A stretch of DNA of 64,000 bases from positions 448,696 through 512,695 of the forward strand of contig CAWBPL010000002.1 of the NCBI GenBank assembly GCA_963790805.1. Direction: 5' to 3'. Shown one piece after another: positions 34,500 through 48,127 of the stretch; positions within the stretch are counted from its first letter, which is position 1, and each line of letters opens with the position of its first letter. A program made the position numbers and the translations under genes. This DNA comes from Candidatus Gottesmanbacteria bacterium. Its GTDB lineage: Bacteria; Patescibacteriota; Microgenomatia; UBA10105; UBA927. Below the pieces are notes generated by a model, which worked only from the letters and a program-made list of their open reading frames with translations, did no database searches and was not told the DNA's origin.

Positions 34500-34853
34500 A
34501 TGAACCGTTTTATAGAGAATCCGATTATCCGATGGAGCATCATTCTCGTAAGTTTTTTCATCAGTATCGAGCTCATAAGCTCAATTATCGGCAATTTACA
34601 CCGTAACGATACACTTTCGCAGCGCCAAATGGTGCTTCATGAGGAACAATCCCAAAATCAGACATTAAAGAAAGAACTAAAAGAGGCGACCAGTGCCTCG
34701 TTTATTGAACGAATAGCACGCGACAAACTGGGGCTGGCGCGTGAAGGTGAGACAATTATTTTTATGGCCAAACCGCAGGTTTCCGATAATCAAACAGAGT
34801 CTTTAGGGCCACCACAATCGTTATGGGAGCGCTGGTGGAAGTTGTTTTTTTAG
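34500..34853 (+). CDS. septum formation initiator (FtsB/DivIC-like)
   Basis: N-terminal TM, then coiled coil ...QNQTLKKELKEATSASFIERIARDKLGLAREGETI. Confidence 0.65.
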   Translation: MNRFIENPIIRWSIILVSFFISIELISSIIGNLHRNDTLSQRQMVLHEEQSQNQTLKKELKEATSASFIERIARDKLGLAREGETIIFMAKPQVSDNQTESLGPPQSLWERWWKLFF

Positions 34854-34887
34854 AGTTTAGCTTGCGCTGATGAGTGAAGCGACGAAG

Positions 34888-34959
34888 TGCCAGCGGCAGG
34901 AATCGGACCTGCTGCCCATGCCTTATGAAGACACTGCTCTACCAATGAGCTACGCTGGC
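34888..34959 (-). tRNA. tRNA with CAT anticodon (elongator Met or lysidine-modified Ile2); CCA not encoded
   Basis: The reverse complement folds by hand. Acceptor GCCAGCG/CGCTGGC. D arm GCTC-ATTGGTA-GAGC. Anticodon arm GTGTC-TTCATAA-GGCAT. Variable GGGCA. T arm GCAGG-TCCGATT-CCTGC. Discriminator A. 72 nt. Confidence 0.85.
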
Positions 34960-35009
34960 CTCTGAGACAGAAACTACGTTTCTTTCCCAGCGATACTTTC
35001 TACCAATGA

Positions 35010-35048
35010 ATTGCGACGGGTTCAGGTCATAAAGCACACCGTCGCAAT
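35010..35048. repeat. perfect 10-bp inverted repeat with 19-nt spacer
   Basis: ATTGCGACGG (35010-35019) and CCGTCGCAAT (35039-35048). Confidence 0.8.
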
Positions 35049-35131: not shown

Positions 35132-35161
35132 TTGACCATCAGGATGCTCTCCGAGTATAAT
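35132..35161 (+). promoter_or_regulatory. sigma70-like promoter aimed at the tRNA-like gene
   Basis: TTGACC (35132-35137), 18-nt spacer, TATAAT (35156-35161). It ends 24 nt before position 35185. Confidence 0.55.
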
Positions 35162-35167
35162 GATCAT

Positions 35168-35184
35168 GTTCTGATTTCAAGAAC
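35168..35184 (+). repeat. diverged copy of the island repeat block (palindromic ends GTTCT/AGAAC)
   Basis: GTTCTGATTTCAAGAAC directly abuts the tRNA-like gene. It shares GTTCTnAnTTCnnGnAAC with the copies at 45788, 46589 and 47730. Confidence 0.5.
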
Positions 35185-35254
35185 CGCGGGGTAGTGTAGA
35201 GTAGCACAGAAGGCTCATAATCTTCTAGACCAGGCGCGACTCCTGGCCCCGCAA
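35185..35254 (+). tRNA. non-canonical tRNA-like gene, anticodon CAT (possibly an element-borne or hybrid tRNA)
   Basis: Hand fold. Acceptor CGCGGGG/CCCCGCA (C1xA72 mismatch plus 6 bp). D stem GTGT/GCAC with loop AGAGTA (no GG). Anticodon arm GAAGG-CTCATAA-TCTTC. Variable TAGA. T arm CCAGG-CGCGACT-CCTGG (no TTC). Discriminator A. 70 nt. Confidence 0.5.
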
Positions 35255-36970
35255 CAAGCTAGGAATTGAAGCAAACATTTCGTCCGTTTGAGCCGTTGGA
35301 ATGCTCTGTTTATCGGGTGCGAGTAATTCCTGAAGTATTGGTGCTTCTTTTTTCATCTTCTTGATCACAATAAACGGCAACGGGCTTTCAATACGCAGTG
35401 TTTTATCTTGTAATTTTAGGTGCGAACCTAACTTTGATAATATCTCCCGTTTCACTCCGAGGTCGGGTTCTGCGAACCGCTCACGTGCATGAGCGGCAAA
35501 ATTGAATTTCTCGTTTATCTCGTCTGCGGCTTGGAGCATACGTTCGTCTATACTGCCCATCTGCTTCCCTAATCCTTTAATTTCAGCTTCCAGTTTGAGT
35601 TTCTGTTCCTTGAATTGTTCGTCAGATAACATGCTTCCATCACTATTGAGTGGTGAAATTTTGAGTTTGACGAGATTATCAAGTTCTTTCCGGGCGTCAG
35701 AGTGGGCACGAGTCACCGATTGTATTGCTTCCTCTCGGAAATCCCGCTCACCGTCATTCATTACATTGATTTGTCTGATAGACCAATCTACGAAGCACTG
35801 TGGTATTTCAAGAGATGAAATTTCAGCATCAATCTGCTTTTCAAATAGATCAAGTCGTATGCCTTTTTGTGTACACCGTAGGTCTTTCCGGCGTTTACAG
35901 CGATAGTAAATGTAATGCAGGATTTTTGGCTCTTTCATTTGGTCAATACGAGTTTTGCACTGTGGACACGCTTCTTTATTTTTCTTCGTTAAAGAAAACT
36001 TGAGCTTACAGGTACGGCAAATACACTGCCATTTCTCCTCTGCGGTGATCGTGGAGCCACAAAACCCGCATTTTAGCAGTGACGTATATGCCCACTCGTG
36101 ATTTTTGAGATGATATTTGCTTTTATGACCGAGTATTACCTGCACTTCTTCAAATAACTCATCACTGATGGCGGGTTCATGTTTTCCTTCGTGCCATTCT
36201 CCGCTCCCTTCGGGGTACTCAAATTTGCCTGTGTAGAAGGGATTGCCGAGGATTTTATAGATATTGCTGATAGACAACGGTCGCCCCCCCATTCGTTTTT
36301 GTTGCCTTGTCCTGTAGCCCCATTCCTTTTCCGCTAACCGGTGTATCTCAGTCACCGGCGTACCTTTTCGGAATAGCTCAAATATCCTTTGAATGAACGG
36401 GAGCCGTTCTGGATCGGTTAAAACACGCCTAAAACCGCTTTCCGTGCCTTTATCATTGAGATACCCCTGTGGTGCAACACCTGGACGCCACCCATCACGG
36501 CATTTTTTATCAAGACCACGTTTCACTACAATCGCCTTATCATCACTGTCTTTTTTGGATAATCCAAACTCCAAAGTTAGCATAAACTTATCTTCCGGCG
36601 TGTTGTGATATGTCCGGGATGGTGTACGGACTTCAAGCAATTTTCCCATATCAAACAGGTCAATAATTCGTCCGCCGTCAGTCATATTACGAGCTAATCG
36701 GTTAGGATGCCACGTGACTATCGCATTCGCTTCACCCTGTTCTATCCGCGTAATCATTGATTCAAAAATAGGACGTCCTTTTACATGGGCTGATTGTGAT
36801 TCATCTAACACTTCGATAACTCGCAGATTATGGCGTGATTTCAGACCTTCAAGGATATAAAGTTGCTCCGGGAGAGAAGCAGCCTGCCGTTCCTTGTTAT
36901 CCTCGCTAGACTTGCGGGCATATCGAAGTATTTTAGTTGAACAGTTTTGAATCCATAATAAAGCCCCCAC
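35225..36970 (-). CDS. large serine recombinase (resolvase/invertase N-domain + recombinase domain + zinc ribbon + coiled coil)
   Basis: N-terminus ILRYARKSSEDN (catalytic Ser region), NAIVTWHPNRLARN, and a Cys-rich zinc-ribbon block CGFCGSTITAEEKWQCICRTCK...CPQCK. The 3' end overlaps the tRNA-like gene by 30 nt on the opposite strand. Confidence 0.85.
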   Translation of the reverse strand: MGALLWIQNCSTKILRYARKSSEDNKERQAASLPEQLYILEGLKSRHNLRVIEVLDESQSAHVKGRPIFESMITRIEQGEANAIVTWHPNRLARNMTDGGRIIDLFDMGKLLEVRTPSRTYHNTPEDKFMLTLEFGLSKKDSDDKAIVVKRGLDKKCRDGWRPGVAPQGYLNDKGTESGFRRVLTDPERLPFIQRIFELFRKGTPVTEIHRLAEKEWGYRTRQQKRMGGRPLSISNIYKILGNPFYTGKFEYPEGSGEWHEGKHEPAISDELFEEVQVILGHKSKYHLKNHEWAYTSLLKCGFCGSTITAEEKWQCICRTCKLKFSLTKKNKEACPQCKTRIDQMKEPKILHYIYYRCKRRKDLRCTQKGIRLDLFEKQIDAEISSLEIPQCFVDWSIRQINVMNDGERDFREEAIQSVTRAHSDARKELDNLVKLKISPLNSDGSMLSDEQFKEQKLKLEAEIKGLGKQMGSIDERMLQAADEINEKFNFAAHARERFAEPDLGVKREILSKLGSHLKLQDKTLRIESPLPFIVIKKMKKEAPILQELLAPDKQSIPTAQTDEMFASIPSLLRGQESRLV

Positions 36971-37120
36971 CGGGTGGACTCAGATCGGTGAAGACCTGTC
37001 CCAATGGGGGCATTAAAAATCTCCACCTAAATCTCTGAGTCCATATTTATTATATGACCAGTCATAAAGTTTTATCAAGTTTTTGAAGCTATTTTTAATA
37101 CATAGACTTTTCGGCAAATG

Positions 37121-37681
37121 TCAGTGCGTGCATAGTTTTATTGCTTTTTTTAAGGAAGATTCGATATTTTTTCGCATCTTGCCCGCATACCATTTCCGCT
37201 TCAATTTAGCTTCCATTTCATCCAGTTCTGGTGCACTCGTAACGTTTCCGAACGTTTTCCAGATTCCGCTTAATTTTTGGCTTTCATACGTGAGGTTGTA
37301 ACAGTGTCTACAGGCGAAGTGTTTACCTCCGAGATATAGAACGCCTACTCTCCTGCCGCAATAGACACCGTTGGCATACCAAGGGCACTGAAACCAGTAG
37401 CGAAAGCCCCCAAAGTGACAAGGAGTCGTAATTAACGGAACTTTATAGTCGAAGTCCTGTTTCTCGCCTGTATCACGGTCAGTTTGAGTATAGGTAAATC
37501 GAATGTATTGCTCGCTGTCATCTATGTTCGATTGAATACCAGTGCTTCCTGTTTTTTCCCCATTTCTCGACCATGTCATTGTTCCTGATATCCCGCTACT
37601 AAAGTAGCCGTGTTTTTTAAGAAAATACACACTTACTTGTTTGAGGCTATCTGCTTCTTCTTTAGATGACCATCTACTCAT
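37121..37681 (-). CDS. hypothetical zinc-ribbon protein
   Basis: CHFGGFRYWFQCPWYANGVYCGRRVGVLYLGGKHFACRHCYNLTYESQ (a CxxC-type four-Cys arrangement). Family not recognised. Confidence 0.45.
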   Translation of the reverse strand: MSRWSSKEEADSLKQVSVYFLKKHGYFSSGISGTMTWSRNGEKTGSTGIQSNIDDSEQYIRFTYTQTDRDTGEKQDFDYKVPLITTPCHFGGFRYWFQCPWYANGVYCGRRVGVLYLGGKHFACRHCYNLTYESQKLSGIWKTFGNVTSAPELDEMEAKLKRKWYAGKMRKNIESSLKKAIKLCTH

Positions 37682-37898
37682 ATATTCTCCTACATACCGA
37701 AATCATTAGAGATTCTCATAATTTAGCCTCAACTACATGTTACAAAACCACCATTTATTCATCATTTTTCTGGTTTTATAGCCTTTGTAGATCATGTAGA
37801 GGGTGTTTCCGGTACTGCCAACAAGGATTTTTGAGCATCAAGGTTATTTTTTGATACGCCTGACGCTTCCCTAGGAAACTCTACATCCTCTACTACCT

Positions 37899-39173
37899 CT
37901 ACTTGTTTATCTTGCGGGATGCCGTAGCGCTCGCAGAGCGTGTGTCCCTTATATTATCCCACAGAATTTCGGTAACTCCATTGATTCGCCGGGTATTGAA
38001 GTTAAATAGTGATGAGTTTATCTTTCCAATTTTTGCCGGTGATACAAGATATTCTCCCTGTTCTCTGCTGCGTTCGCTGTTTATACGCTTGGCGATTTCT
38101 TTACATCTCAACTCAACGCTTTCGGTTATCATCGCAATCATTGTCCGAAGCACCTGCGCCGGTAGCTCATCGCTCCTCTGTGAAGTCAAATTATCTGCAT
38201 ATCCTTTGACAAACCGTATAATTTCGTCCCGCGCTACATTATCTTCGGCAATACTCAATATCGGAAGAATAATTTGATTGATTCTTGGTTCTACACCCGA
38301 TAATGCAAGTTTTAGATCAACCTCAAGTTGTCCGTAGTGTTCTAGGCGAAAGCCTAAAAGGATATTTCTAAGCTCTAACGCTTCTTTATTAAACACTTTG
38401 GGTAAGTGGATAGGAATATCACTCCGGAGCTTATTTGACATAATTTCAGTGAGGCAACGACTTTCTAGCGCTGAATCATCGAATCGTTTTCTGGTACTGA
38501 TGAGCTTGGGACCGTAGACGATATAGCTTGTCGGCACCCTATCTTTGGCGTCTCCTTCTGTCCGAAGGATTGGTATGCCCTTACAGTAGCCACAGTTGAG
38601 TATTTTTATGATCTCTGCGGACGCATCCGAAAAGCGAAAATCCGCCTCATCAATGATGAGTGTCCCACGATAGAGATTGATAATGCGGAAAATGGGGGAT
38701 GGTGTCGTTGCACCGGCTACAAACATCGGTTTATAACAAAGGCTCCCTATAACCTTCTGAAACCGTGTTTTGCCGGTCCCGTAGTCTCCTAGCGCCCGGA
38801 GATAAGGGAGCACCTCGAAGCAGTCATAGACCCACGTGAGAAGCACGTAATAACTTGCGAGCTTGCGGTAGGAATCGGACACATCGAGGTATCGGTAGAT
38901 AAAATCCTCAATTTCATTGACCAGGTCAGCTACGTTTGCTCCAAACTTCGGGTATTCTGGAAGTAAGATGGTTCCGTTGGCAGTCAGATCGTCTTTTGGC
39001 GGGATGTACGTTACATCTCCAAACTCGTATTTATCCGTAACCTCGTTTTTTTGGGTTAGCAAGTTATAAACCACAAACATTGATGCCTGGTTATTGCCGA
39101 TAAGCTCCACGACATCACCGTTGCCGGGATCGAGAAAACTGGTCTGCTTGAATTTTGTTTTTTGGTCTGTCAT
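37899..39173 (-). CDS. P-loop NTPase, putative element replication (primase/helicase-like) protein
   Basis: Walker A GDYGTGKT and Walker B TLIIDEAD. 4-nt overlap with the upstream small gene. Confidence 0.45.
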   Translation of the reverse strand: MTDQKTKFKQTSFLDPGNGDVVELIGNNQASMFVVYNLLTQKNEVTDKYEFGDVTYIPPKDDLTANGTILLPEYPKFGANVADLVNEIEDFIYRYLDVSDSYRKLASYYVLLTWVYDCFEVLPYLRALGDYGTGKTRFQKVIGSLCYKPMFVAGATTPSPIFRIINLYRGTLIIDEADFRFSDASAEIIKILNCGYCKGIPILRTEGDAKDRVPTSYIVYGPKLISTRKRFDDSALESRCLTEIMSNKLRSDIPIHLPKVFNKEALELRNILLGFRLEHYGQLEVDLKLALSGVEPRINQIILPILSIAEDNVARDEIIRFVKGYADNLTSQRSDELPAQVLRTMIAMITESVELRCKEIAKRINSERSREQGEYLVSPAKIGKINSSLFNFNTRRINGVTEILWDNIRDTRSASATASRKINK

Positions 39174-39385
39174 ATAGGTTTAGGTTGAGATAAAAGCTTG
39201 CTCACTCGTTCGGTTTGCTGTCTTATTTTGTTATCGATGGTCGGCAAGATGCGCTCGTTGATAAACTTAGCCTTGTTTTTATCGCCGGTTCGCATAAAAT
39301 CTAGTCGTTTACAAAATAAGTCAGTGCTTTCGTCCAAATAAGCAACAAGCGTGTCTAGTTCAGCCAGTAATTCTTTTTTGTCCAT
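39170..39385 (-). CDS. hypothetical small protein
   Basis: 71-aa ORF in operonic overlap with the P-loop gene. Confidence 0.35.
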   Translation of the reverse strand: MDKKELLAELDTLVAYLDESTDLFCKRLDFMRTGDKNKAKFINERILPTIDNKIRQQTERVSKLLSQPKPI

Positions 39386-39542
39386 AAACCCCTAGTTTCG
39401 TTAATCGCTTTGGGAAATACACCACTCTCACCAAATCCACTAGCCTCGTGCCTTCCTCAAGCGCTTTTTCGTAGGATATTTCTTTCCCGAACGTTTGTTT
39501 ATAAAGTTTTTGATATTCCATAATGGCTTGTTGGGATAACAT
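39360..39542 (-). CDS. hypothetical small protein
   Basis: Start placed at MLSQQAIMEYQKLYKQTFGKEISYEKALEEG, which abuts the stop of the DUF5659 gene at 39545. Confidence 0.35.
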   Translation of the reverse strand: MLSQQAIMEYQKLYKQTFGKEISYEKALEEGTRLVDLVRVVYFPKRLTKLGVYGQKRITG

Positions 39543-39544
39543 AT

Positions 39545-39796
39545 TTACCCCCCATAAATGCGTGATTTTGCCTCTCGTAATGCGTAAAAATACTTTTTGG
39601 GGGTAACTGTTCCCGTGTCGTTCCAATACGCCTGAATTGCTTTTTGAAGCTCCGTGGTATTGGAAAAAACGAAGGTAACTTTTCCGGGATTAGATTTGTT
39701 GATAGAAACAAGAGGAAAATTCCATGCAATAAGCGCCGCAATTAGCGAAAGCTCTTGTGAAACAAAAACATTTTCTCGTAATTCTTTCTTAATCAT
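39545..39796 (-). CDS. DUF5659 domain protein
   Basis: SLIAALIAWNFPLVSINKSNPGKVTFVFSNTTELQKAIQAYWNDTGTVTPKKYFYALREAKSRIY resembles the DUF5659 pattern seen in phage or CPR mobile elements. Confidence 0.5.
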   Translation of the reverse strand: MIKKELRENVFVSQELSLIAALIAWNFPLVSINKSNPGKVTFVFSNTTELQKAIQAYWNDTGTVTPKKYFYALREAKSRIYGG

Positions 39797-39897
39797 GAAT
39801 TCACTAAGGCTTGATTACGAGACCCTGTCAAGCGCAATTTTCGTAGCTAATTCGTGAGAAGTATATGGTATGCCGTAATATGAAGTTGGATTACGAC

Positions 39898-40422
39898 CTA
39901 TGTTATCTTAAAAATCCAGTTTTTCTTTTTTCTGTTGAACGTCAAAAATAATCGCTCTTCTAACTTTGGTTTTTGTCTGTGTCGTTTGCGGATAGCTGTA
40001 GTACAACGCGATATAGGGGCATCTGGTCTGTTTTTGTGGAGCTCAATATAAATACTCATAACCTCTTCTGGAGTAAATTCTGTTTTCCCAGGGTTCCTTA
40101 TCCGCAAATTCCAAAAGGCTTCAAAGACTTTTCGTTCTTGAGGCGCAGAGCTAAAGTTGATTACATCGGACGATCCGTCTCCGAGCTTGAAAAATACTAC
40201 TCCATTTTGATACATCACCCTCTGCCCTGGAAGAAATTGTACAATCTTTCCAGTGTCTCTGAATTGTTGCAATAAGGGGATGTTGACGCCATTGAAGATG
40301 ATCTCGGCTTGATAAACGTCTTTGTACGGATTTGTAGACCAACCACGCAAACAGCCAGCAGCTTTCAGCTTATTTAGAAAAGCGCTAAATAATCGCCATT
40401 CCCCAAAATAATAATTGAACAA
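39898..40422 (-). CDS. hypothetical protein
   Basis: 174-aa ORF with a basic C-terminus (RKRHRQKPKLEERLFLTFNRKKKN). Family not recognised. Confidence 0.4.
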   Translation of the reverse strand: MFNYYFGEWRLFSAFLNKLKAAGCLRGWSTNPYKDVYQAEIIFNGVNIPLLQQFRDTGKIVQFLPGQRVMYQNGVVFFKLGDGSSDVINFSSAPQERKVFEAFWNLRIRNPGKTEFTPEEVMSIYIELHKNRPDAPISRCTTAIRKRHRQKPKLEERLFLTFNRKKKNWIFKIT

Positions 40423-40471
40423 ATTGTATTTATTGTTCCACTACCTGCTTCTGTCCATTGAAAAGTCATAT

Positions 40472-40672
40472 TTATTCCATGCGTTTCCTATCTTCTTGAG
40501 TACTTGCAATTTTTCGTTGGATAACAAGATCGTAATCTTTTTGTTTTTGATCAAGTTGGTTTTGATGAAGATTGATCGCCTTGTTTATATTTTCAATGTT
40601 ATCCGTGAGAGTATCAGGTATAACTGTCGGATAATAGATTTGTTGCGGTAACTGCTTTGATTTCTTTTTCAT
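40472..40672 (-). CDS. hypothetical small protein
   Basis: 66-aa ORF, first gene of the minus-strand module. Confidence 0.3.
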   Translation of the reverse strand: MKKKSKQLPQQIYYPTVIPDTLTDNIENINKAINLHQNQLDQKQKDYDLVIQRKIASTQEDRKRME

Positions 40673-40775
40673 TTTAATTTTAATAGTGAGCCTATTATAT
40701 CAGGAAAAACGACACGGTGGCTTCCAAAGTTATTCTATTTCTGGTATCGTACAGGGGACAATTTAATTGCCTAAA

Positions 40776-40880
40776 CTACCGAAAGGTAGCATGGCAGAAA
40801 AACCGGTAAAGAGCTGTAAGCTCTCGTCAGAGCATCTTTACCGGTCATGCAAGGAAACTTGCATGGGTGACGCAAGTCAT
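40776..40880 (+). ncRNA. candidate structured RNA leader (four consecutive hairpins, three with GNRA tetraloops)
   Basis: CTACC-GAAA-GGTAG (40776-40789). 11-bp helix ACCGGTAAAGA...TCTTTACCGGT (40802-40845). CATGCAAG-GAAA-CTTGCATG (40846-40865). TGAC-GCAA-GTCA (40868-40879). The GNRA loops exist only on the + strand. Confidence 0.45.
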
Positions 40881-40900
40881 CACTGGCGGGAGCTTTCTGT

Positions 40901-41269
40901 GTGAAATACATATCTAATTTATTCAAAGGTAGGCTGGGTGTAATTAACTACTGGATTGGTTGGATTATTCCAATAATACTATTTGGCGTTCTAGGCAACG
41001 CAATAATAGGGATTTCAAAGACCCCGGTTGGATTCATAGTTTTGATGTTTGTAGAGCTCGTATTATTTATATATTTCTTTTCTCTCTTTGTAAGGAGACT
41101 CCATGATAATGGCAAGAGCGGATGGTATCTGTTATGGAGTTTTGTTCCGTTGGTAAACTTATATCTCCTTGTGTTGCTATTTTATATTCCCGGAAACAAA
41201 AAAACTAACAAATTTGGTTCTCCTAATAATAAGGCTCGTTTAAGAAATATATTCGCATTAGAATCTTAA
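40901..41269 (+). CDS. DUF805 family inner-membrane protein
   Basis: RRLHDNGKSGWYLLWSFVPLVNLY is the DUF805 hallmark. GTG start. Confidence 0.7.
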   Translation: MKYISNLFKGRLGVINYWIGWIIPIILFGVLGNAIIGISKTPVGFIVLMFVELVLFIYFFSLFVRRLHDNGKSGWYLLWSFVPLVNLYLLVLLFYIPGNKKTNKFGSPNNKARLRNIFALES

Positions 41270-41299
41270 ACACGGAAGTGGGCTAAAATTTACATAAAA

Positions 41300-42055
41300 A
41301 TGAAAAGAATAATTTTAATAGTAATACTTCTTATAGGAGTTTCCCTTATAGCTATAGCGTTGAGCTATCCGATCAGAGAATACATCTTCAAAGAACAACA
41401 ACTTGGAGACCTCAATACCAAAGGTGGTGCAGAAATCACATTTCAATTTGACATGACAAATATACCAGAGGCTGAAAGAAATAAAGTATTTAATGAAAGC
41501 AAGGGTATTCTCTCTAGACGGATAGAATTCTTCGGACTCTACCCTTTTATGCAAGATTCTTCTAACTACGAAGTGGTTGTTCGGCTTGCTAATGTCAGGA
41601 ATCTTGATTTATTAGCGACTTTATTGGGAACTACAGCACAGTTGGATTTCCGTGAGTATACAAACCCGAATGCTTCAATCAGCGCGACAACAACAGTTGC
41701 GGATCTATTGAATATGACAAAATCCGTCGGTATAACCGGTAACGATTTGACGCATGCGCAGGTTACGTTTGACAATACAACTGGCGCACCGCAGGTAGCA
41801 ATCACTTTTAATGCTGCGGGCACAACAAAGTTGGCTAACGTTACACGACGTCTTGTTGGAAAGCCACTTGCTATATTTTTGGATAACAAATCTATTACTT
41901 CCCCGGTGATAAAACAGGAAATTACTGATGGATCTGCGGTTATCAACGGACAATTTACCCAGGATCAGGCAGAAACACTTGCTCTGCAACTTAATGCTGG
42001 CGCTCTCCCTACACCCGTTTCAATCCTTGAAAAACATATCATTAAAGCAAAATGA
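41300..42055 (+). CDS. SecD-like protein consisting only of TM1 plus the periplasmic P1 head/base domain
   Basis: GDLNTKGGAEITFQFD, LLGTTAQLDFRE and GKPLAIFLDNKSITSPVIKQEITDGSAVINGQFTQDQAETLALQLNAGALPTPVSI match SecD N-terminal motifs. The protein ends before the 5 C-terminal TM helices. Confidence 0.6.
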   Translation: MKRIILIVILLIGVSLIAIALSYPIREYIFKEQQLGDLNTKGGAEITFQFDMTNIPEAERNKVFNESKGILSRRIEFFGLYPFMQDSSNYEVVVRLANVRNLDLLATLLGTTAQLDFREYTNPNASISATTTVADLLNMTKSVGITGNDLTHAQVTFDNTTGAPQVAITFNAAGTTKLANVTRRLVGKPLAIFLDNKSITSPVIKQEITDGSAVINGQFTQDQAETLALQLNAGALPTPVSILEKHIIKAK

Positions 42056-42369
42056 AAACGATTTTAATAATCATCGCCTGCATATCCCTGATCACTATTT
42101 CTCTATCTGCTTCTTACTATTTTGTTATCTTTCTTCCTAAACAGGAGCGCGTTAATACCGCAACGCTTAAAAGAATTGAACAATCAACGGTAAATACTGA
42201 GGGGAATACCCAACCAATTATAGATACAACTGATATTCAAAATAAGCTAGACGATATAAATAACTCGTTACAAGAACAGCAAAGAGATACCGAATTGCGG
42301 AATAATTGTGAATCAAACGGAGGGGTTTATAGAGGGAACGGCGTATGTTGTCTTACCAACTGTCAATAA
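42052..42369 (+). CDS. hypothetical membrane-anchored protein with Cys-rich C-terminus
   Basis: N-terminal TM and C-terminal CESNGGVYRGNGVCCLTNCQ. ATGA overlap with the upstream gene. Confidence 0.4.
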   Translation: MKTILIIIACISLITISLSASYYFVIFLPKQERVNTATLKRIEQSTVNTEGNTQPIIDTTDIQNKLDDINNSLQEQQRDTELRNNCESNGGVYRGNGVCCLTNCQ

Positions 42370-42404
42370 AAAATAATTGGTGTCTGTGATTTTTTGAGTA
42401 ACCC

Positions 42405-43184
42405 ATGACTAAAACTTGTCCCTTTTGTAAAAAGCACGTAGATAAATCAGCGGCAGAATGTCCTCACTGTAAACGGGTACTGATTGAGTACATCGGTAAC
42501 CGTTCTTCTGTACCGAATCCTCATAAGACTACGATACTGGAAAGCATCAAAAAGCGCTTAGCTACCTTCCATAAACGTATACATAATACCCATATTAGGC
42601 TTCACAAGCCTTCTTTCAATAAGAATTATCTATGGATCATTCCGGTTATCATTTTTCTTGTTATTCTTGCGTCCGGGCACACCGGCAATCTCACAAGTAC
42701 GGATAGTTCTGAAAATATCCCGACCAGCACAACGGAAAACTCATTACCCACGAACTACAACAGACTATCAAACGGATCGGTACTGTCTTCCCGTATTGTT
42801 AGCAGTTCGGGGTTAGGTACCTTTGAGATTGATAACGGCACAGAAGATGATGCCGTTGCAAAATTAGCGAATACAAAAATAGGTGTATCGGTATTTACCG
42901 TATTTATCCGAGCAAACTCAAAGTTTACCATTACGAAAATACCCGATGGAACGTATATGCTCTATTTTCAAACGGGAAAAGATTGGGACAATACCGCGAA
43001 GAAGTTTTTGTACTACCCGTCTTTTTCACAGTTTACCGATGATTTTCAGTACACGACGACCCATATAGAGACGTACGATGCCATCAATACGAGATACTCA
43101 ACCTATCAAGTGACGCTCAACCCTGTAGCCGGTGGAACAGCGAAAACGAACGCCGTTTCAGAGAGCGAGTTTGAAAAGTATTAG
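42405..43184 (+). CDS. zinc-ribbon / TM / extracytoplasmic-domain protein
   Basis: CPFCKKHVDKSAAECPHCKR, TM (LWIIPVIIFLVILASG), C-terminal beta-rich domain. Confidence 0.45.
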   Translation: MTKTCPFCKKHVDKSAAECPHCKRVLIEYIGNRSSVPNPHKTTILESIKKRLATFHKRIHNTHIRLHKPSFNKNYLWIIPVIIFLVILASGHTGNLTSTDSSENIPTSTTENSLPTNYNRLSNGSVLSSRIVSSSGLGTFEIDNGTEDDAVAKLANTKIGVSVFTVFIRANSKFTITKIPDGTYMLYFQTGKDWDNTAKKFLYYPSFSQFTDDFQYTTTHIETYDAINTRYSTYQVTLNPVAGGTAKTNAVSESEFEKY

Positions 43185-43198
43185 CGCGATCAATACGT

Positions 43199-43498
43199 AT
43201 GTACCAATTTGATAAATATGCACGTCCCTATTGCACAACTTGTAAGTTGTTTTGGGGAAAACAGAATATAGGAACCCTCTTGAGTTGTACGAAGTTCGGT
43301 CGACGGTTGATCTTAAAATCTTTTAATCCCTTTGCCCAATGCGTGAAGGGGTTAGGAATAATGAGCTTAGGCGGATTATCTATGGTACTCGGGCTTCCCA
43401 TTATTTGGATCGGTGGTTTCCTATGGGGAGGTCAACAGATCCTTCACGCATTTAAGCAATGGGGCGACGTAAAGGCGTTGGATAATAAGACGTTATGA
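43199..43498 (+). CDS. hypothetical small membrane protein
   Basis: 99-aa ORF with a Cys pair near the N-terminus and a G-rich TM hairpin. Confidence 0.35.
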   Translation: MYQFDKYARPYCTTCKLFWGKQNIGTLLSCTKFGRRLILKSFNPFAQCVKGLGIMSLGGLSMVLGLPIIWIGGFLWGGQQILHAFKQWGDVKALDNKTL

Positions 43499-43654
43499 TG
43501 CCTTGCTTGAAACTGATTGATCATGCGTTATTCGACGAATTTTACCACTCAGGATAGGGATTACATCCCTAAGGGCAATCCTAGCTACAGCTGAGGCTGT
43601 GTAATGCCGTAAAACGATCGGAAAGGTGAGAGGTGACGTTATATAGCTTCAATT

Positions 43655-43683
43655 TTGACAAGCTGCCGTGTGACTGTTAGTAT
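43655..43683 (+). promoter_or_regulatory. sigma70-like promoter upstream of the NUDIX gene
   Basis: TTGACA (43655-43660), 17-nt spacer, TAGTAT (43678-43683). Confidence 0.45.
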
Positions 43684-43793
43684 AAATATAGCTTTAGCGA
43701 TTCGAAAGAATGTCCATTGCAGCTACCAGTATTTTGGGGCTGCATTTTTTGTGTTAAGCCCCAAAAATATAAACAGTAGATTGGAGGTGGAAT

Positions 43794-44192
43794 ATGGAAA
43801 ACAAAATTTATGTATCAGTCTATGCGCTGATAAAAAACACTAACGGGCGTTACCTGTTTATTCAAAGGGCAAATAATGATTCCATGCCGGGCGTCTGGGA
43901 AGTGCCCGGGGGTAAAACGGAGTATGGTGAAGACCCGAAAGAATCCTTAAAAAGAGAGGTGATGGAGGAGGTTGGGTTAAACATTGAGCCATTAAACCCC
44001 TTTTGTGTGGTCTCCCATATAAGTCTGGAGAAGCAAGCCGTAAGAATTGTTTATACGGCTAATTTAATAAAATCCGGTGATGTTAAGCTAAGTTCGGAAC
44101 ACGCAGCGTTTAAGTGGGCTGATTTCTCTGATCTCGAAGTTAGCAGCTCGCTTTTTTTACAGCAGGTATATAAAAATTTGAAGGAATCTTGA
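43794..44192 (+). CDS. NUDIX hydrolase
   Basis: Nudix box GVWEVPGGKTEYGEDPKESLKREVMEEVGL. Confidence 0.85.
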   Translation: MENKIYVSVYALIKNTNGRYLFIQRANNDSMPGVWEVPGGKTEYGEDPKESLKREVMEEVGLNIEPLNPFCVVSHISLEKQAVRIVYTANLIKSGDVKLSSEHAAFKWADFSDLEVSSSLFLQQVYKNLKES

Positions 44193-44294
44193 TTGATTTT
44201 ACCCTTGGGATAGAGAAGCCTTGAATAATAATCTTTTCCCTATCAATCAGGTTAATCTAAACTTAATTGATAGGCGTTTTTGGTGAGATAATAG

Positions 44295-44316
44295 GTTCTG
44301 ATTTTTTAGATCTGGG
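44295..44316 (+). repeat. diverged copy of the island repeat block
   Basis: ATAATAG|GTTCTGATTTTTTAGATCTGGG shares ATAATAGGTTCT with copy A and GTTCTGATTT with the copy at 35168. Confidence 0.4.
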
Positions 44317-44322
44317 AATGCT

Positions 44323-44352
44323 ATAAAAACAAAGACCCCGGCTTTCGCCGGG
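44323..44352 (-). terminator. rho-independent terminator of the NYN gene
   Basis: GC hairpin CCCGGC-gaaa-GCCGGG on the minus strand, followed by GTCTTTGTTTTTAT. Confidence 0.6.
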
Positions 44353-44454
44353 TGAAGTAATTAACTGCATCTTATATCATCAAAAACTGTTTGTCAAGAG
44401 ATAGCCCATTCTGACCGCTAAAACAGCATATTCCGTCATTTACGCAGGGCAAAT

Positions 44455-45177
44455 TCATGCCGATTTTTTCTCGTATTTCAATATTCTTTCCAAATCCTCA
44501 AGCCGGGTATATGTTACATAGGGGGACTGGAATGCAAGCACCTTAAGCTCATGTGATATTCTAGTTTCAAAACTGAAAATATGAACAGGCTTCCCAATAC
44601 TAGTTGTTTGTTTTACGAGTTTTTCAAAGTCTGAATCCCCAGCGAAGAGAATAAGTTCGTTCCATTGCTGCTGTTCTATTATGGCGTCAATCATCAGGTC
44701 ACCATCAGTCTTATTGGATGGTTTATGCTCGTCCCCCAAGATAAACTTCAATGGTTTGGAAACGACGCGTATACCGATGCCTCTTAATCCGTTCTCAAAT
44801 CTTAATGCCCCTTCGTTCAAAATATAATTTCCTTTAGCATCTTTTTGGTATTTGCCGTTTGCGTCCTGCTTGTAGCCAGTGCAGTTATAGTAACTGATAA
44901 TCGCAATTGAGTATTTTCGTTCGATGAATTGACGAAGACTCGCGTAGTTTACTTGCCAACCCGCTATTTTCCCTCCATGGTAAACGTTTGACCCATCAAT
45001 ATACAGGCCCACCTTGGACTTCACCTTTCCGGTAATCGAAGCGAACGGGACAAGCCAAGTTTTCCCTTTTTTAACAGCACCGGGTATCTGGTCGTTTTGG
45101 CAACGTTTTTTCAATGTTTCTTGATCTATTTCTGAGAGCTGTTCAGCCTCGATTAAGGTAATTAGAGAATCACTCAT
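44455..45177 (-). CDS. HTH (excisionase/MerR-like) + NYN (LabA-like) ribonuclease-domain protein
   Basis: N-terminus LITLIEAEQLSEIDQETLKKRCQNDQIPGAVKKGKTWLVP (HTH_17-like). Then VGLYIDGSNVYHGGK...LILFAGDSDF, the acidic NYN motifs. Confidence 0.6.
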   Translation of the reverse strand: MSDSLITLIEAEQLSEIDQETLKKRCQNDQIPGAVKKGKTWLVPFASITGKVKSKVGLYIDGSNVYHGGKIAGWQVNYASLRQFIERKYSIAIISYYNCTGYKQDANGKYQKDAKGNYILNEGALRFENGLRGIGIRVVSKPLKFILGDEHKPSNKTDGDLMIDAIIEQQQWNELILFAGDSDFEKLVKQTTSIGKPVHIFSFETRISHELKVLAFQSPYVTYTRLEDLERILKYEKKSA

Positions 45178-45325
45178 GAATATATTTTACCGGTATCGGT
45201 AATTGTTGTCAAGTAACATGCTCAAATTCTCTGTTCGTGTCAGAAAATGATTATAGTTATTATGTGGAAAATATCATCAAAATCGACTAAAATAGCCATA
45301 CTCCAAGAGATAGAAAGAGAAGGAT

Positions 45326-45736
45326 ATGGATACTTACAAATACATCGGAACAGTGAGCTATACGGTGTTAGATAGTAATTTTGGCACTGCTCAGTGGCAA
45401 CCAAAGACTTTTTATGGCGCACCTTTGGGAACCATAATCACTCTCCCGCCTATGTTTCTGAGTGCATTCGGTTCCGCCGGTACATCTTTACCCACCATTT
45501 CTTCATACGGGCAGCCGTACGTGGCTGCGGTGAATATAGTGAGGCAAGATTATGAGTTTGGTAAACCAGTTTTTGACTTGGATCGTTACATTGTTAAGCC
45601 GACAAATTACTACGGAATCGTGTTGAAGGAGCGACCAGATAGTCAACATCATCTAAATCCCGAAAGTAAGCTTATAGATTTTCTTGAGCCGAGGTTACAA
45701 GTTAATATTAAAAAAACGCTTAAATCGAACAGGTGA
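45326..45736 (+). CDS. hypothetical protein (cassette 1)
   Basis: 136-aa ORF followed by repeat copy A. No recognisable family. Confidence 0.4.
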   Translation: MDTYKYIGTVSYTVLDSNFGTAQWQPKTFYGAPLGTIITLPPMFLSAFGSAGTSLPTISSYGQPYVAAVNIVRQDYEFGKPVFDLDRYIVKPTNYYGIVLKERPDSQHHLNPESKLIDFLEPRLQVNIKKTLKSNR

Positions 45737-45780
45737 TGAAATCAACTGATAGATTGATATTGCTTGGGATGTATAATCAA

Positions 45781-45814
45781 ATAATAGGTTCTAACTTCTT
45801 GTAACCCCCGCAAC
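45781..45814 (+). repeat. island direct repeat, copy A
   Basis: ATAATAG GTTCTAACTTCTTGTAACCCCCGCAAC (core 45788-45814). Confidence 0.85.
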
Positions 45815-45981
45815 TTAAGATAAATAGTCCGTCAATACAGACCATATTACAGCTGCCCTCCTCATCCTATTAAATTAGTGGATTAACTTATGTCACTAAT
45901 TTAATAAAAGTTGTTAGCCTAACCATTGTCGTTAATAATGTTTGAAGTATAATAGCTTCAAATAAGGTAAATAAATTTACT

Positions 45982-46449
45982 ATGGTTGAAGACGTTAATA
46001 ATCCCACTCCAGAACAGGAAGTTGGTACTATAGAGACGGATATTATTAAATTAGTTAATCAATTAGAGCTAACAGATCAACTAACTGATGTTAGTCAAAC
46101 CGGTCTTTTCAAACAAACACGGTCATACCAGCATGATGTAGGTGAACGTATATCTGCGGGATTATTTGTTGAAGCGGAAACACTTAATCAAGTAGTTGGT
46201 GGCCTTTTGGGGAAAGATATAGCTGATAAAACAGTCGGAGAAGATTTAGTCACAGAAGTTGGAATTTGGCTTAACGGTGAAAAAGGTGCAGAACAGTATG
46301 TTATTCGATCAGGTGATCTTTGGCTTCAAAAAAATGGAGGAAAAAATAAAAAAATTATCCCAACCACAGATGACACGTTGAACATAAGAAATATATTGGA
46401 AACTATTCGTGCAGAGATCCCACGAGAAACATTAAGCCAAAATTCTTAG
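45982..46449 (+). CDS. hypothetical acidic protein (cassette 2)
   Basis: 155-aa ORF. A TATAAT at about 45948 lies upstream. Followed by repeat copy B. Confidence 0.4.
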   Translation: MVEDVNNPTPEQEVGTIETDIIKLVNQLELTDQLTDVSQTGLFKQTRSYQHDVGERISAGLFVEAETLNQVVGGLLGKDIADKTVGEDLVTEVGIWLNGEKGAEQYVIRSGDLWLQKNGGKNKKIIPTTDDTLNIRNILETIRAEIPRETLSQNS

Positions 46450-46588
46450 CTTCATATTGCTTTTTGTACGTTACCATTATCCATCGTTTTAATATAAAAT
46501 TTTAGTAGCTCTGCGTTATTTGAATTATTGTGTTCCACGTTCGTAGCTGGTTTTCAAGGTATTTTAGATTTATATTGTAAGCAAATAT

Positions 46589-46633
46589 GTTCTAACTTCT
46601 TGTAGTCCCCGCAACCAAAATTAGTTTAGGCTG
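46589..46633 (+). repeat. island direct repeat, copy B
   Basis: GTTCTAACTTCTTGTAGTCCCCGCAAC CAAAATTAGTTTAGGCTG. Confidence 0.85.
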
Positions 46634-46700
46634 TAAATACCTTCTATTTAATGTGTCATCGCCTTGATCAAAATCCCAACTAGTCCTATAATACCAATTT

Positions 46701-47360
46701 ATGGCGACTCCCTATCTGGAGACGGGACGATTTCGTCCTGACGTTTTATCATTTGTAAACGTGGAATTCCGTCATGGCGTGAAAGATGATAGTTACGGCT
46801 ACCATGGAACAAGCATTTACGCACTTCTTACCATGCTTCGCACCGGAGTTATTCCATGAAGGACAAGACCTGAAGCGCCTCGGATTGCTGGACATCCCCG
46901 CGAGGGTGATCTCTATATTTGGAAAAGCGACCCGTCGGATTATCGCTCTAAAGACGCGATTCATTACGCGACAACGTACGCGAGACTTGCCGCTCAAAAG
47001 CATAGTTTTATGAGTGAACTGGGTTTATCTTTCGATGATGAGAGCAATATGTATGCTGCATTGCAATTAACCGATCCATACGGTCAGGGTAACGATCGGG
47101 ACCGCCAACTTGAATTTCTGGAGCAAAAGGGTCTATCCGAAGCTCAGATTAACAAAGCGGTTACACATGCACGCGGGATGAAAGGGGTGCTTATCGGGTT
47201 ATCTGCGAGCGTAGCTACTCAATTTCCTATCGTTGATTGTTCCCCTGACGATGGATGGAAAATTGAAACACAGAACGGTCTACCGTTCCAGTTTGTTGAA
47301 GGCATTCGATTTTTAGGTCATCAGGACGAACAATTGTTTCGTCAAAACCTAACACAATAA
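46701..47360 (+). pseudogene. 219-codon reading frame interrupted by one in-frame TGA (cassette 3); the track shows only the distal 116 aa
   Basis: ATG at 46701, TGA at 46857-46859, and the same frame stays open to the TAA at 47358-47360. TTGATC-17-TATAAT promoter at about 46662-46690. The N-terminal part contains YGYHGTSIYALLTMLRTGVIP. Confidence 0.5.
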
Positions 47361-47375
47361 TTATTAAGGCAATAG

Positions 47376-47410
47376 ATTCCAAGTTTTTTTGTAACCCCCG
47401 CGACGAGGCT
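47376..47410 (+). repeat. island direct repeat, copy C (more diverged)
   Basis: ATTCCAAGTTTTTTTGTAACCCCCGCGAC GAGGCT. Confidence 0.75.
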
Positions 47411-47412
47411 AA

Positions 47413-47439
47413 ATGGAGCGTACTAACGCTCCATTTTTT
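47413..47439 (+). terminator. rho-independent terminator
   Basis: ATGGAGCG-tactaa-CGCTCCAT followed by TTTTT. Confidence 0.75.
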
Positions 47440-47456
47440 GTGATACACTGTAGTCA

Positions 47457-47729
47457 ATGATTAAAACAAAAAAACAGGTCGTGGTTGGTGGCATCTATAG
47501 ACATTGTCACGGGCTTCATTATCGCATTAATTCAATTGGTCTTAATGTTACCAACTATGAGAAAGGCAACAAAACGTTTCCCCGATTTGTTGTATATACG
47601 CAGCTTGAAGCGGGAAAGTTTCCCGCAGGAACGATATGGGTTTGTGATGAACACGATTTTTTGGGAACAACCAAAGGGGAAAAAGGTCAAGTGGTAAACA
47701 TATTTGAGCTTGTTGAAGATAAAAAATAA
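47457..47729 (+). CDS. DUF1653 domain protein (cassette 4)
   Basis: GGIYRHCHGLHYRINSIGLNVTNYEKGNKTFPRFVVYTQLEAGKFPAGTIWVCDEHDF fits the DUF1653 pattern (YRHyKG..Y...VvY..l...W.R....F). Confidence 0.6.
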   Translation: MIKTKKQVVVGGIYRHCHGLHYRINSIGLNVTNYEKGNKTFPRFVVYTQLEAGKFPAGTIWVCDEHDFLGTTKGEKGQVVNIFELVEDKK

Positions 47730-47770
47730 GTTCTAAGTTCTTGTAACCTCCGCAACCAAATTTGAGGCTG
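47730..47770 (+). repeat. island direct repeat, copy D (starts the nucleotide after the stop codon)
   Basis: GTTCTAAGTTCTTGTAACCTCCGCAAC CAAATTTGAGGCTG. Confidence 0.85.
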
Positions 47771-47809: not shown

Positions 47810-48127
47810 CTAAGTGAATACAGGCGATGTGGAGTGAGGATGGAGCCCACTTCATGAAAGAAATGTCGAACTTTCATGACGCTGACCCTAATCAGGTACG
47901 GAGGCGAAACCGTAAAAAGTCTGTCAACATATGTCGCAAGTAGCGGAGTATGTCATAAACAAGACTTCTTACATGACGTGCTTCCTTAAAGGGAAGCATT
48001 TTTTGTAGGCAAGTGAAACCCTCTTTCGTTGAAACTACGGAGGGTAAACAAGGTGGCACCGCCCTCAATAAGAGAGCCCTTGTAAGTCTTTCAGGACTTT
48101 TTCTGGGAGATTTGCAAGGGTTTTTTT
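47810..48127 (+). promoter_or_regulatory. T-box riboswitch leader (transcription attenuation type)
   Basis: T-box sequence AACAAGGTGGCACCGCC (48047-48063). Antiterminator: A1 CAAGG/CCTTG, 7-nt bulge TGGCACC, A2 GCCCTC/GAGAGC. Competing 13-bp terminator CCCTTGTAAGTCT...AGATTTGCAAGGG (48077-48120) plus T7. Stem III ACCCTC/GAGGGT. Upstream GCGATG/AGTGA elements. Confidence 0.8.

Follow-up and report, generated by a model that had tools for sequence, protein, structure and literature searches.

In this study, we analysed a window of 64,000 nt from Candidatus Gottesmanbacteria bacterium (GenBank assembly GCA_963790805.1, contig CAWBPL010000002.1, positions 448,696 to 512,695 of the forward strand), to which all coordinates refer unless the contig of a relative is named. 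The segment 35256-47756 of this window is an insertion between the 3′ end (last 9 nt) of an initiator-type tRNA(CAT) gene and the promoter and T-box leader of trpS. With a probability of about 80%, its sequence features identify it as a genomic island which a large serine recombinase (LSR) inserted where the initiator tRNA gene of the host ends. The recombinase gene sits at the left edge of the island and runs into the tRNA gene from the opposite strand, and the codons for its last 21 or so residues lie at the far end of a 10.56 kb element. The features that carry this reading are the following:

35185-35255, plus strand: initiator-type tRNA(CAT), 71 nt, a host gene and the predicted attachment site attB (ARAGORN; Rfam tRNA, 46.9 bits)
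35247-35255, plus strand: left crossover core CCCCGCAAC (putative attL), the one stretch in which the tRNA end and the distal sites agree exactly
35225-36970, minus strand: LSR in its integrated form, 581-codon open reading frame (ORF) with Pfam matches
45742-45814, minus strand: detached LSR 3′ end (LRGLQEVRTYYLIIHPKQYQSIS, then stop), consisting of the element-side arm and the core at 45806-45814; putative attR of the 10.56 kb element

Borders of the island and the host target gene

Close relatives were found through the XerC protein encoded in the left flank, and three of their contigs (L099, L100 and L101) were compared with the window. In L100, whose XerC is 90% identical, neither a recombinase nor a repeat is present, and the core CCCCGCAAC is joined directly to TTGACAAAAGAGCCTATAA (..TTGACAAAAGAGCCTATAAGTG..) and the T-box leader. 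After its tRNA core, L100 has the same sequence as the window has after its last repeat core, and once 35256-47756 is taken out, the window aligns colinearly with L100 through the junction (76% identity over 375 columns). A nhmmer search of L100 for remnants of the arm sequence gave none at E<=1. L099 likewise has no recombinase and no repeats. In L101, the most syntenic relative, the tRNA precedes one unit of 1 kb with a repeat at its end, no recombinase is present, and the alignment to the window ends at 35256. The exact junctions are thus 35255/35256 on the left and 47756/47757 on the right, enclosing about 12.5 kb. An earlier reading of the window made without database searches (the sequence-only reading) had proposed an integrated element at 35132-47770, which was close to these borders, and had named a gene order conserved in all relatives as evidence against integration; the order is not so conserved, since L100 has the empty site, L099 has neither recombinase nor attachment sites, and L101 has only the 1 kb cassette.

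The composition of the island agrees with the impression, gained by eye in that reading, of a higher AT content than in the flanks. The GC fraction is 0.407 within the island and 0.442 outside, and no 12.5 kb stretch of the window is lower. By tetranucleotide L1 distance, the island lies 0.186 from the remainder of the window, roughly double the value of any control stretch (0.069-0.112 in 27 control windows). A composition indistinguishable from the flanks, which that reading had also named as evidence against integration, is thus not seen.

The target gene carries a CAU anticodon, the C1xA72 mismatch and the A73 discriminator. Its acceptor strands, CGCGGGG and CCCCGCA, are the same as those of Escherichia coli tRNA-fMet, the E. 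coli gene sequence having been confirmed in each of 5426 genomes of that species. The anticodon stem of 35185-35255 does not end in a run of three G-C pairs at its base: GAAGG/TCTTC gives the pairs A29-T41, G30-C40 and G31-T39, a variant that is kept in relatives. The T-loop reads CGCGACT instead of a TTCAAAT-like sequence and the D-loop has no GG; together with the anticodon stem, these unusual loops explain the modest Rfam score. Other Microgenomates retain the GTTCAACTCC T-arm in their initiator tRNA.

The initiator tRNA gene occupies the equivalent position in relatives both with and without the recombinase, and is a host gene and not one supplied by the element. The sequence-only reading had described a tRNA-like gene supplied or overlapped by a recombinase element; the overlap is real (31 nt of the 71-nt tRNA gene), while supply by the element does not hold, the gene being present in element-free relatives too.

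In many relatives, the initiator tRNA is broken between positions 33 and 34, in the anticodon loop, by an insertion of 193-250 nt, which in L003 is a group I intron by Rfam (58.4 bits). The intron occurs in L003 (11744-11959), L008 (11741-11933), L099, L100 and nine further loci. The intron is absent from the window, L005, L011 and L101, so that its presence varies among close relatives.

The recombinase gene, its attachment sites and its family

Domain content and catalytic residues indicate that 35225-36970 encodes an LSR. The product matches Resolvase (PF00239, E 3.8e-15) and Recombinase (PF07508, E 5.3e-12), and Zn_ribbon_recom (PF13408) scores 20.5 bits, under its cutoff of 25.3. Eight invariant Cys residues form four CxxC-like pairs (C301/304, 318/321, 335/338 and 358/366). 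Across 20 homologues with 43-93% identity to the window protein, Y17, R19, S21, R66, R91 and R94 do not vary; inactivating substitutions at the catalytic serine, which the sequence-only reading had listed among the grounds for rejecting an integrated element, are not seen, Ser21, Arg66 and Arg91/94 all being intact. The closest PDB match is SPbeta YokA (E 7e-9). The integrated protein ends in ..LLRG-QESRLV, its last 6-7 codons and stop coming from the antisense strand of the tRNA T-arm, and the C-terminal peptide typical of the family, ..ASIPTLLRG(R/Q)ES.., is likewise tRNA read in antisense.

At the right side of the island, the repeat ..GTTCTAA(C/G)TTCTTGTAACCCCCGCAAC occurs in four copies, with cores at 45806, 46607, 47396 and 47748, each after one small ORF; 100 shuffles gave 0 matches. 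The core CCCCGCAAC itself is found at 35247, 45806 and 46607, with one-mismatch copies at 47396 and 47748, and so forms a distal direct repeat of the tRNA 3′ end. The whole 3′ half of the tRNA was not found as a direct repeat within the window, the 9-nt core being all that recurs. At the first distal site, 45780-45814, the tail is intact. Because no site lies between it and the tRNA, 35256-45814 (10.56 kb) can be taken as one element. The sequence-only reading had described related repeat blocks at both ends and at the internal module junctions. Four copies do exist on the right; the left end has only the 9-nt core CCCCGCAAC, and the junction of the minus- and plus-strand modules holds a LOOT RNA and no repeat.

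The arm of the repeat behaves as a coding sequence. Read in the LSR frame after ..LLRG, it gives LRGL[QEH]E[IVL]R[TN][YW][FY]L, and many loci continue with ..P[IV]FIPDL and a stop at codon 22-25, a continuation that falls outside the stretch used to build the repeat profile. Its variation is 3-periodic (summed entropy at codon positions 1, 2 and 3 of 6.71, 4.27 and 10.99 over 28 sites), and its Leu codons differ between copies (TTA, CTC, TTG and CTA). In P0038 (591 aa, contig L097), body and tail are encoded in one ORF (..SIPSLCRHLEEIRTYFLTSPTPAFIPDLR, then stop). Given the conserved in-frame peptide, the 3-periodic variation, the conserved stop position and the unsplit P0038, we conclude that the arm encodes the last ~21 LSR residues, which places the attachment site attP inside the LSR gene and means that integration splits that gene.

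L097, a 7128-bp JGI contig (Ga0438325_0014302), holds two different LSR-family genes in tandem, each contiguous with its tail-coding arm, and its core TGTCGGCAC resembles the tRNA-Phe end used in L019. It may be a tandem array or the replicating form of an element of about 6 kb.

In the mechanism that we propose, attP in the 3′ end of the LSR gene would recombine with attB, made up of the tRNA acceptor end and the DNA downstream of it, by a crossover within CCCCGCAAC. The crossover is placed within the 9 nt common to both sites, its exact position being an inference; with the exchange confined to shared sequence, the tRNA would be left unaltered. Integration would move the last ~21 LSR codons to the far end of the element, and the integrated gene would end with QESRLV and a stop taken from the antisense strand of the tRNA. 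The attP junction reconstructed in this way is ..GGTTCTAA[C/G]TTCTTGTAACCCCCGCAAC joined to AAGCTAGGAATTGAAGC... The predicted attB is ..GACTCCTGGCCCCGCAAC joined to CAAATTTGAGGCTGATATTTGACA.. if the whole island is lost, and ..CCTGGCCCCGCAAC joined to TTAAGATAAATAGTCC.. if only the 10.56 kb unit is lost.

Homologues of the LSR are abundant in Microgenomates-type genomes of the candidate phyla radiation (CPR). A scan of one genome per species gave 158 chromosomal LSR loci, the best 80 of which were examined, and association with tRNA genes was counted in the 71 loci that had at least 120 nt of sequence beyond the LSR gene. An opposite-strand tRNA called by ARAGORN overlaps or abuts the LSR 3′ end in 41 of these, and 11 more have a tRNA-fMet that ARAGORN missed, split by an intron in nine cases. 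In at least 52 of the 71 related CPR loci, the LSR gene thus ends on a tRNA gene in antisense. This tRNA is tRNA-fMet in the closest LSR clade (at least 52% identity), and tRNA-Asn, Ser, Trp, Gln or Phe in clades further away. The repeat profile matches nearly all loci of the fMet clade over ~32 nt, always in tRNA orientation and 4-10 kb from the LSR, and often in 2-5 copies. In the other clades, direct repeats of 10-16 nt of their own tRNA end lie at comparable distances from the LSR.

The distribution of the LSR also differs from that of the host. Relatives with 90-93% identical XerC have no LSR, and LSRs that are 63-94% identical carry different cargo at the same tRNA. In L003, the LSR is 94% identical to that of the window and XerC on the same contig only 86%. 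An LSR identity above XerC identity in L003, together with LSR-less hosts at 90-93% XerC identity, argues for gain, loss or transfer. A recombinase domesticated by the host, for example as an invertase of the tRNA-adjacent segment, with the variable genes put down to ordinary hotspot turnover, would make the island immobile, and we consider this highly improbable. It would fit the finding that the segment from tRNA-fMet to the distal site is flipped relative to XerC-DivIC-tRNA-Met in L003 and L008/L013 compared with the window, L005/L012 and L011. However, an empty site and LSR-less relatives exist, the LSR is more conserved than the host marker, the LSR clades are tied to different tRNA genes, and a split LSR gene makes sense only if the ends of the element are joined in a circle.

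Several observations weigh against site-specific integration by the LSR as reconstructed here, or against its still operating in this genome. The ungapped dyad symmetry of the reconstructed attP and attB is not above that of shuffled controls, and neither a crossover dinucleotide nor a directionality factor was identified. The excision junctions that the sequence-only reading had suggested seeking in metagenomic reads were not seen: the attP-type pattern had 0 matches in IMG/VR; in metagenomes, it was found only in LSR-less chromosomal arrays and not in free circles (four contigs, identical at and around the site, which hold a 17-nt LSR remnant); and the Logan contigs of the sample ERR11594402 show the integrated state only. 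No tRNA was detected beside the LSR in 18 of the 71 related loci. Finally, the copy in the window may no longer be mobile, having six backbone deletions relative to a second copy from the same sample, L103.

Some candidate signals were discarded. Half-site motifs picked out by eye, with a 4-nt offset between the tRNA-side and element-side arms, were dropped because the dyad symmetry was at the shuffled level. L097 (7.1 kb) and L103 (10.6 kb) were rejected as circles, their ends having no terminal overlap. Breaks between Logan contigs at 35211, 35227, 45825 and 47892 were rejected as signs of excision; they lie off the attachment cores and look like strain bubbles.

A further proposal goes beyond integration itself, and we regard it as rather unlikely. 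The exchange of C-termini might be functional, the full-length enzyme (..LLRG-LQE[IV]RTY[FY]L..) being made from the circle only and favouring integration, and the form with the tRNA-derived tail being inert or biased towards excision. With the repeated arms, the initiator tRNA would then be a platform for CPR serine-recombinase cassettes, and the 9-nt core, with which the initiator tRNA gene of E. coli ends as well, a natural attB across bacteria. If true, the exchange would be a built-in directionality switch for a serine integrase.

Content and state of the island

L103 is a 10,605-bp contig from ERR11594402 that represents window positions 35227-45825 in a second strain (99.75% identical, 26 differences). 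Beyond the LSR, the 10.56 kb element contains the following features, with values for L103 where they differ:

37121-37681, minus strand: zinc-ribbon protein, 186 aa (195 aa in L103), with homologues in 9 related islands
37899-39173, minus strand: superfamily 3 (SF3) helicase of the D5/primase-helicase type, 424 aa (460 aa in L103)
39170-39385, minus strand: 71-aa ORF
39360-39542, minus strand: conserved 60-aa protein, found by tblastn, with a gene call also in L103
39545-39796, minus strand: DUF5659 protein (Pfam, E 5.5e-12), in 24 related loci
39898-40672, minus strand: gene for a 258-aa protein, intact in L103, here present as 174-aa and 66-aa ORFs
40768-40881, plus strand: LOOT RNA (RF03000; Rfam, 87.6 bits), at the boundary of backbone and cargo
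40901-44192, plus strand: cargo genes for a DUF805 membrane protein, a SecD P1-head protein, a 105-aa ORF, a 259-aa zinc-ribbon/membrane protein, a 99-aa ORF and a NUDIX hydrolase
44455-45177, minus strand: NYN-domain protein, cargo (Pfam, E 2e-16)
45326-45736, plus strand: 136-aa ORF, cargo

The minus-strand module that the sequence-only reading had described, with a zinc-ribbon protein, a P-loop protein, DUF5659 and small ORFs, is present as stated. In its plus-strand module, the membrane or secreted proteins (DUF805 and SecD P1-head) and the NUDIX hydrolase were likewise found, although the NYN gene is on the minus strand. The two modules are backbone and cargo of one element and not two accreted parts, because no attachment site separates them and relatives have the same layout of backbone, LOOT and cargo. 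Only the LSR, the ~60-aa protein (40 loci), DUF5659 (24) and the zinc-ribbon protein (9) recur across islands, and the cargo and cassette genes of the window have no homologue in the other islands. The ~60-aa protein, a candidate directionality factor or regulator with tblastn matches in those 40 related loci, is the commonest accessory gene of the family and as a rule lies immediately upstream of the LSR. The SecD P1-head protein (41300-42055, plus strand) is a stand-alone protein of 251 aa with an N-terminal membrane anchor and the SecD/F P1 head (PF22599, E 8.9e-33), without the rest of SecDF.

The P-loop protein is assigned, at the level of the modelled fold, to the SF3-type replicative helicases. 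It has a Walker A motif, GDYGTGKTR, and a Walker B motif, IIDEAD, and its AlphaFold2 model (pLDDT 86.8, pTM 0.82) was matched by Foldseek to the C-terminal region of the NrS-1 primase-polymerase (E 1.6e-8), the SaPI5 primase-helicase, PriRep1, poxvirus D5/E5 and MCM. These matches have E values of 1e-8 to 1e-4 and TM-scores of just 0.3-0.4, which is why the assignment is kept at fold level. Some homologues are fused to Prim-Pol or zf-CHC2 (a DnaG-type zinc finger). A helicase of this kind points to autonomous replication after excision, and 35256-45814 is probably an integrative, self-replicating element with an excised circular form.

No capsid, tail, terminase or packaging-interference gene was recognised by Pfam or NCBIfam in the island proteins. 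Ten of these proteins gave no match to a PHROG of known function; three weak PHROG matches (E 3e-4 to 2e-3) all link the 259-aa cargo protein to families of unknown function. Among 2.9 million IMG/VR contigs, close relatives of the LSR are absent, the best being 22-23% identical. Searches of the unannotated island proteins against PHROGs, NCBIfam, Pfam and PDB sequences gave nothing useful beyond the assignments listed. The absence of virion genes and of a close IMG/VR relative leads us to read the element as integrative and plasmid-like. A prophage, or a helper-packaged phage satellite resembling the phage-inducible chromosomal islands (PICI) or Staphylococcus aureus pathogenicity islands (SaPI), would also combine an integrase, a protein of the SF3 primase-helicase type and small regulators in ~10 kb, and SaPI5 and phage NrS-1 are among the structural matches. 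The size fits as well, ~10 kb being common for genomic islands (PMC12424338). However, given the lack of PHROG matches of known function, of capsid, terminase and packaging-interference genes and of a close relative in IMG/VR, we find such an origin unlikely.

A covariance model of LOOT built from five copies matches 8 related LSR loci from fMet-, Ser- and Asn-targeting clades, in every case on the strand that does not encode the LSR:

L018, 7461-7607: LOOT RNA
L030, 7610-7750: LOOT RNA
L042, 8522-8677: LOOT RNA
L054, 6011-6161: LOOT RNA
L057, 6729-6884: LOOT RNA
L058, 2887-3039: LOOT RNA
L071, 3844-3982: LOOT RNA
L072, 21223-21367: LOOT RNA

It usually lies between the backbone (DUF5659 and the 60-aa protein) and the cargo, and contains the invariant segment AAGCTC(N)TCGTCAGAGC. 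The main text of the paper that introduced LOOT does not discuss the motif and gives no function for it there. The present data place this orphan RNA in a defined genetic context, as far as we could find for the first time.

The copy of the element in the window may be damaged. Compared with L103, it has six single-base deletions, at 36923, 36947, 37174, 37952, 40430 and 40486, all in the backbone and none in the cargo. Those at 36923 and 36947 put the canonical LSR ATG (about 36956; MDTQTVQLKYFG..) out of frame, the L103 protein starting with the canonical MDTQTVQLKYFGYARKSS; that at 37174 affects the zinc-ribbon protein; that at 37952 alters the C-terminus of the helicase, with the loss of ~36 residues from the 460 aa that are typical of the family and present in L103; and those at 40430 and 40486 split the 258-aa gene. 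It is quite possible, though we would stop short of even odds, that the element arrived by the mechanism proposed above and that frameshifts then disabled its recombinase and replication genes, leaving an immobilised relic that persists as a fixed cargo island. That all six deletions fall in the backbone is in line with this, as is the identity of the flanks to ERR11594402 Logan contigs (100% over 14.3 kb), which speaks against a generally error-prone assembly. On the other hand, all six differences are deletions and several lie near mismatches, so that local assembly or consensus error fits too; an in-frame GTG still yields an LSR ORF with every catalytic residue; and an intact copy exists at the same site in the same sample. 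The copy is either a decaying relic or locally mis-assembled in a strain-variable region.

To the right of the 10.56 kb element, the island continues with three cassettes:

45815-46615, plus strand: cassette 1 (801 bp), 155-aa ORF at 45982-46449, decayed arm and core at 46580-46615
46616-47404, plus strand: cassette 2 (789 bp), 116-aa ORF at 47010-47360, strongly decayed arm and one-change core at 47370-47404
47405-47756, plus strand: cassette 3 (352 bp), 90-aa ORF at 47457-47729, arm and core CTCCGCAAC at 47722-47756, the right end of the island

Their arms are progressively degraded, with premature stops in the tail or changes in the core. The cassettes are most simply explained as remnants of earlier insertions at the same site, the older elements having decayed. 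Stepwise accretion, which the sequence-only reading had suggested for the whole interval, thus fits the cassettes at the right end, all three of which terminate in a decayed arm, and not the minus- and plus-strand modules, which belong to one element.

Alternatively, the LSR might work in the manner of an integron, capturing, excising and reshuffling single-gene cassettes at the tRNA, with the arrays not being products of decay. Several genomes have arrays of 2-5 arm sites beside tRNA-fMet, 350-1640 bp apart and usually with one ORF each, and some of these have no LSR, such as the three cassettes in L092 and the one in L101. At an internal site of L092, moreover, the right arm repeats the sequence that follows the tRNA, as the insertion of a cassette at the tRNA would give. 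However, the cassette ORFs do not significantly favour one orientation (8 of 11 run in the direction of the tRNA, p=0.23), no cassette of the window recurs in other loci, and the arms of the arrays hold decayed LSR tail codons with premature stops and substitutions, as relics would. The four sites of the window fold no better than shuffled sequence (z +0.9 to +2.0), and with no IntI and no attC-like hairpins at the sites, we rejected an integron in the strict sense. Canonical LSRs, in addition, do not recombine like sites with like in the absence of a directionality factor. We consider a cassette-capturing role of the LSR to be improbable, and prefer remnants of earlier insertions.

The LSR-less array of L092 (9283-11050) consists of three cassettes by tRNA-fMet, with a 259-aa ORF, a membrane ORF and a GIY-YIG nuclease, and one of its sites retains a 17-nt remnant of the LSR 3′ end. 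On the reverse strand of L101 (2982-4034), a single cassette lies by tRNA-fMet with no recombinase.

Relation to known systems and genomic neighbourhood

The island recombinase resembles the large serine integrases of phages and integrative and conjugative elements (SPbeta SprA/YokA, A118, Bxb1 and phiC31) in its order of resolvase, recombinase and Cys-rich zinc-ribbon domains, in the short att core shared by both sites and in the location of the integrase gene at the edge of the element beside attP. It differs from them in that the target is a tRNA gene and in that attP lies inside the ORF, so that the C-terminal ~21 residues would be swapped. Identity to characterised LSRs is very low (E about 1e-8, over the N-terminal half only).

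tRNA genes are normally targeted by tyrosine integrases, and tRNA-targeting islands are defined by them. The present island is similar to such tDNA islands (P4-like, Islander-type): it abuts the 3′ end of a tRNA gene, with the integrase gene beside the tRNA and a direct repeat at the far border, the tRNA probably stays functional, and tandem arrays form at the same tDNA. In contrast, its recombinase is of the serine and not the tyrosine type, which places it outside the Islander definition by tyrosine integrase; its repeat is only 9-16 nt, shorter than the displaced tRNA fragment usual there; and its integrase gene is convergent with the tRNA and overlaps it. The neighbouring XerC is conserved beside DivIC and IleS in relatives whether or not they carry the island.

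In archaeal integrases of the SSV1 type, attP lies in the integrase ORF, a tRNA gene is the target and the parts of the gene end up at opposite ends of the provirus. Those are tyrosine recombinases of archaeal viruses with two large gene parts, unlike the CPR serine recombinase, which would lose ~21 codons and gain a tail from the antisense strand of the tRNA. SCCmec (staphylococcal cassette chromosome mec) and composite SCC elements use the serine recombinases CcrAB or CcrC, insert at the 3′ end of rlmH, which is kept active, and form tandem composites that include recombinase-less pseudo-elements. Here too, an LSR inserts at the end of a conserved housekeeping gene, which is left intact, and site repeats delimit successive units; unlike SCCmec, the island targets a tRNA and not a protein gene, and its repeats hold detached recombinase codons. 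A specific relationship to Ccr proteins was not detected. The filamentous phage phiRSM reportedly uses a small serine recombinase with the 3′ end of a tRNA-Ser gene as attB, and its small resolvase-like integrase is the one serine-family exception to tyrosine-integrase targeting of tRNA genes known to us. It is a small resolvase-like protein of a proteobacterial phage, encoded by an unsplit gene, whereas the present LSR has recombinase and zinc-ribbon domains. The phiRSM study is that of Askora et al. 2011 (reference 22 in PMC7192596).

The literature searched gave no link between serine recombinases, tRNA targets and CPR/Patescibacteria. Mobile elements of these bacteria are barely described, and through this locus a widespread family can be characterised by its exact borders, its attachment sites and its conserved backbone. 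It represents a serine-recombinase family that is systematically tied to tRNA genes, with clades matched to at least six different tRNAs. An LSR gene cut at attP by integration suggests a possible route to directionality control, and, large serine integrases being in use as tools of genome engineering, an LSR family that targets the near-universal acceptor end of tRNAs could supply landing sites for it.

The flanks of the island consist of housekeeping genes, as the sequence-only reading had stated:

33540-34400, minus strand: XerC, left flank
34500-34853, plus strand: DivIC/FtsB-like gene, left flank
34887-34959, minus strand: elongator tRNA-Met, left flank
47926-48084, right flank: T-box leader, a weak Rfam match (29 bits, E 1.4e-4)
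48258-50123, plus strand: trpS, right flank

A promoter-like TTGACA..TATAAA lies in the right flank, ahead of the T-box leader and trpS. This region is a rearrangement hotspot; genes between DivIC and TrpS (RRM, DprA, ComM and others) also differ among Gottesmanbacteria. Just upstream of the elongator tRNA-Met, the stretch 34997-35020 resembles the 5′ part of that tRNA (ctaccaatgaattgcgacgg vs ctaccaatgagctacgctgg), with a hairpin after it; the likeness may be due to chance or stem from an old partial duplication.

Between the T-box terminator and the start of trpS, a degenerate tRNA-Trp-like sequence is found at 48131-48222 on the plus strand (Rfam tRNA, 21.6 bits). Its D-arm, T-arm and 3′ acceptor strand are kept, but another sequence stands in place of the anticodon arm, and there is damage to the 5′ acceptor strand. 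Downstream of the homologous T-box leader, L003 has an intact tRNA-Trp. TrpS itself (48258-50123) has 621 aa and combines a YbaK-type aminoacyl-tRNA editing domain, a class I Trp/Tyr synthetase core and a C-terminal tRNA-binding domain. The fusion to the editing domain also occurs in L101 (624 aa), and the TrpS proteins of other relatives have 350-492 aa without this domain.

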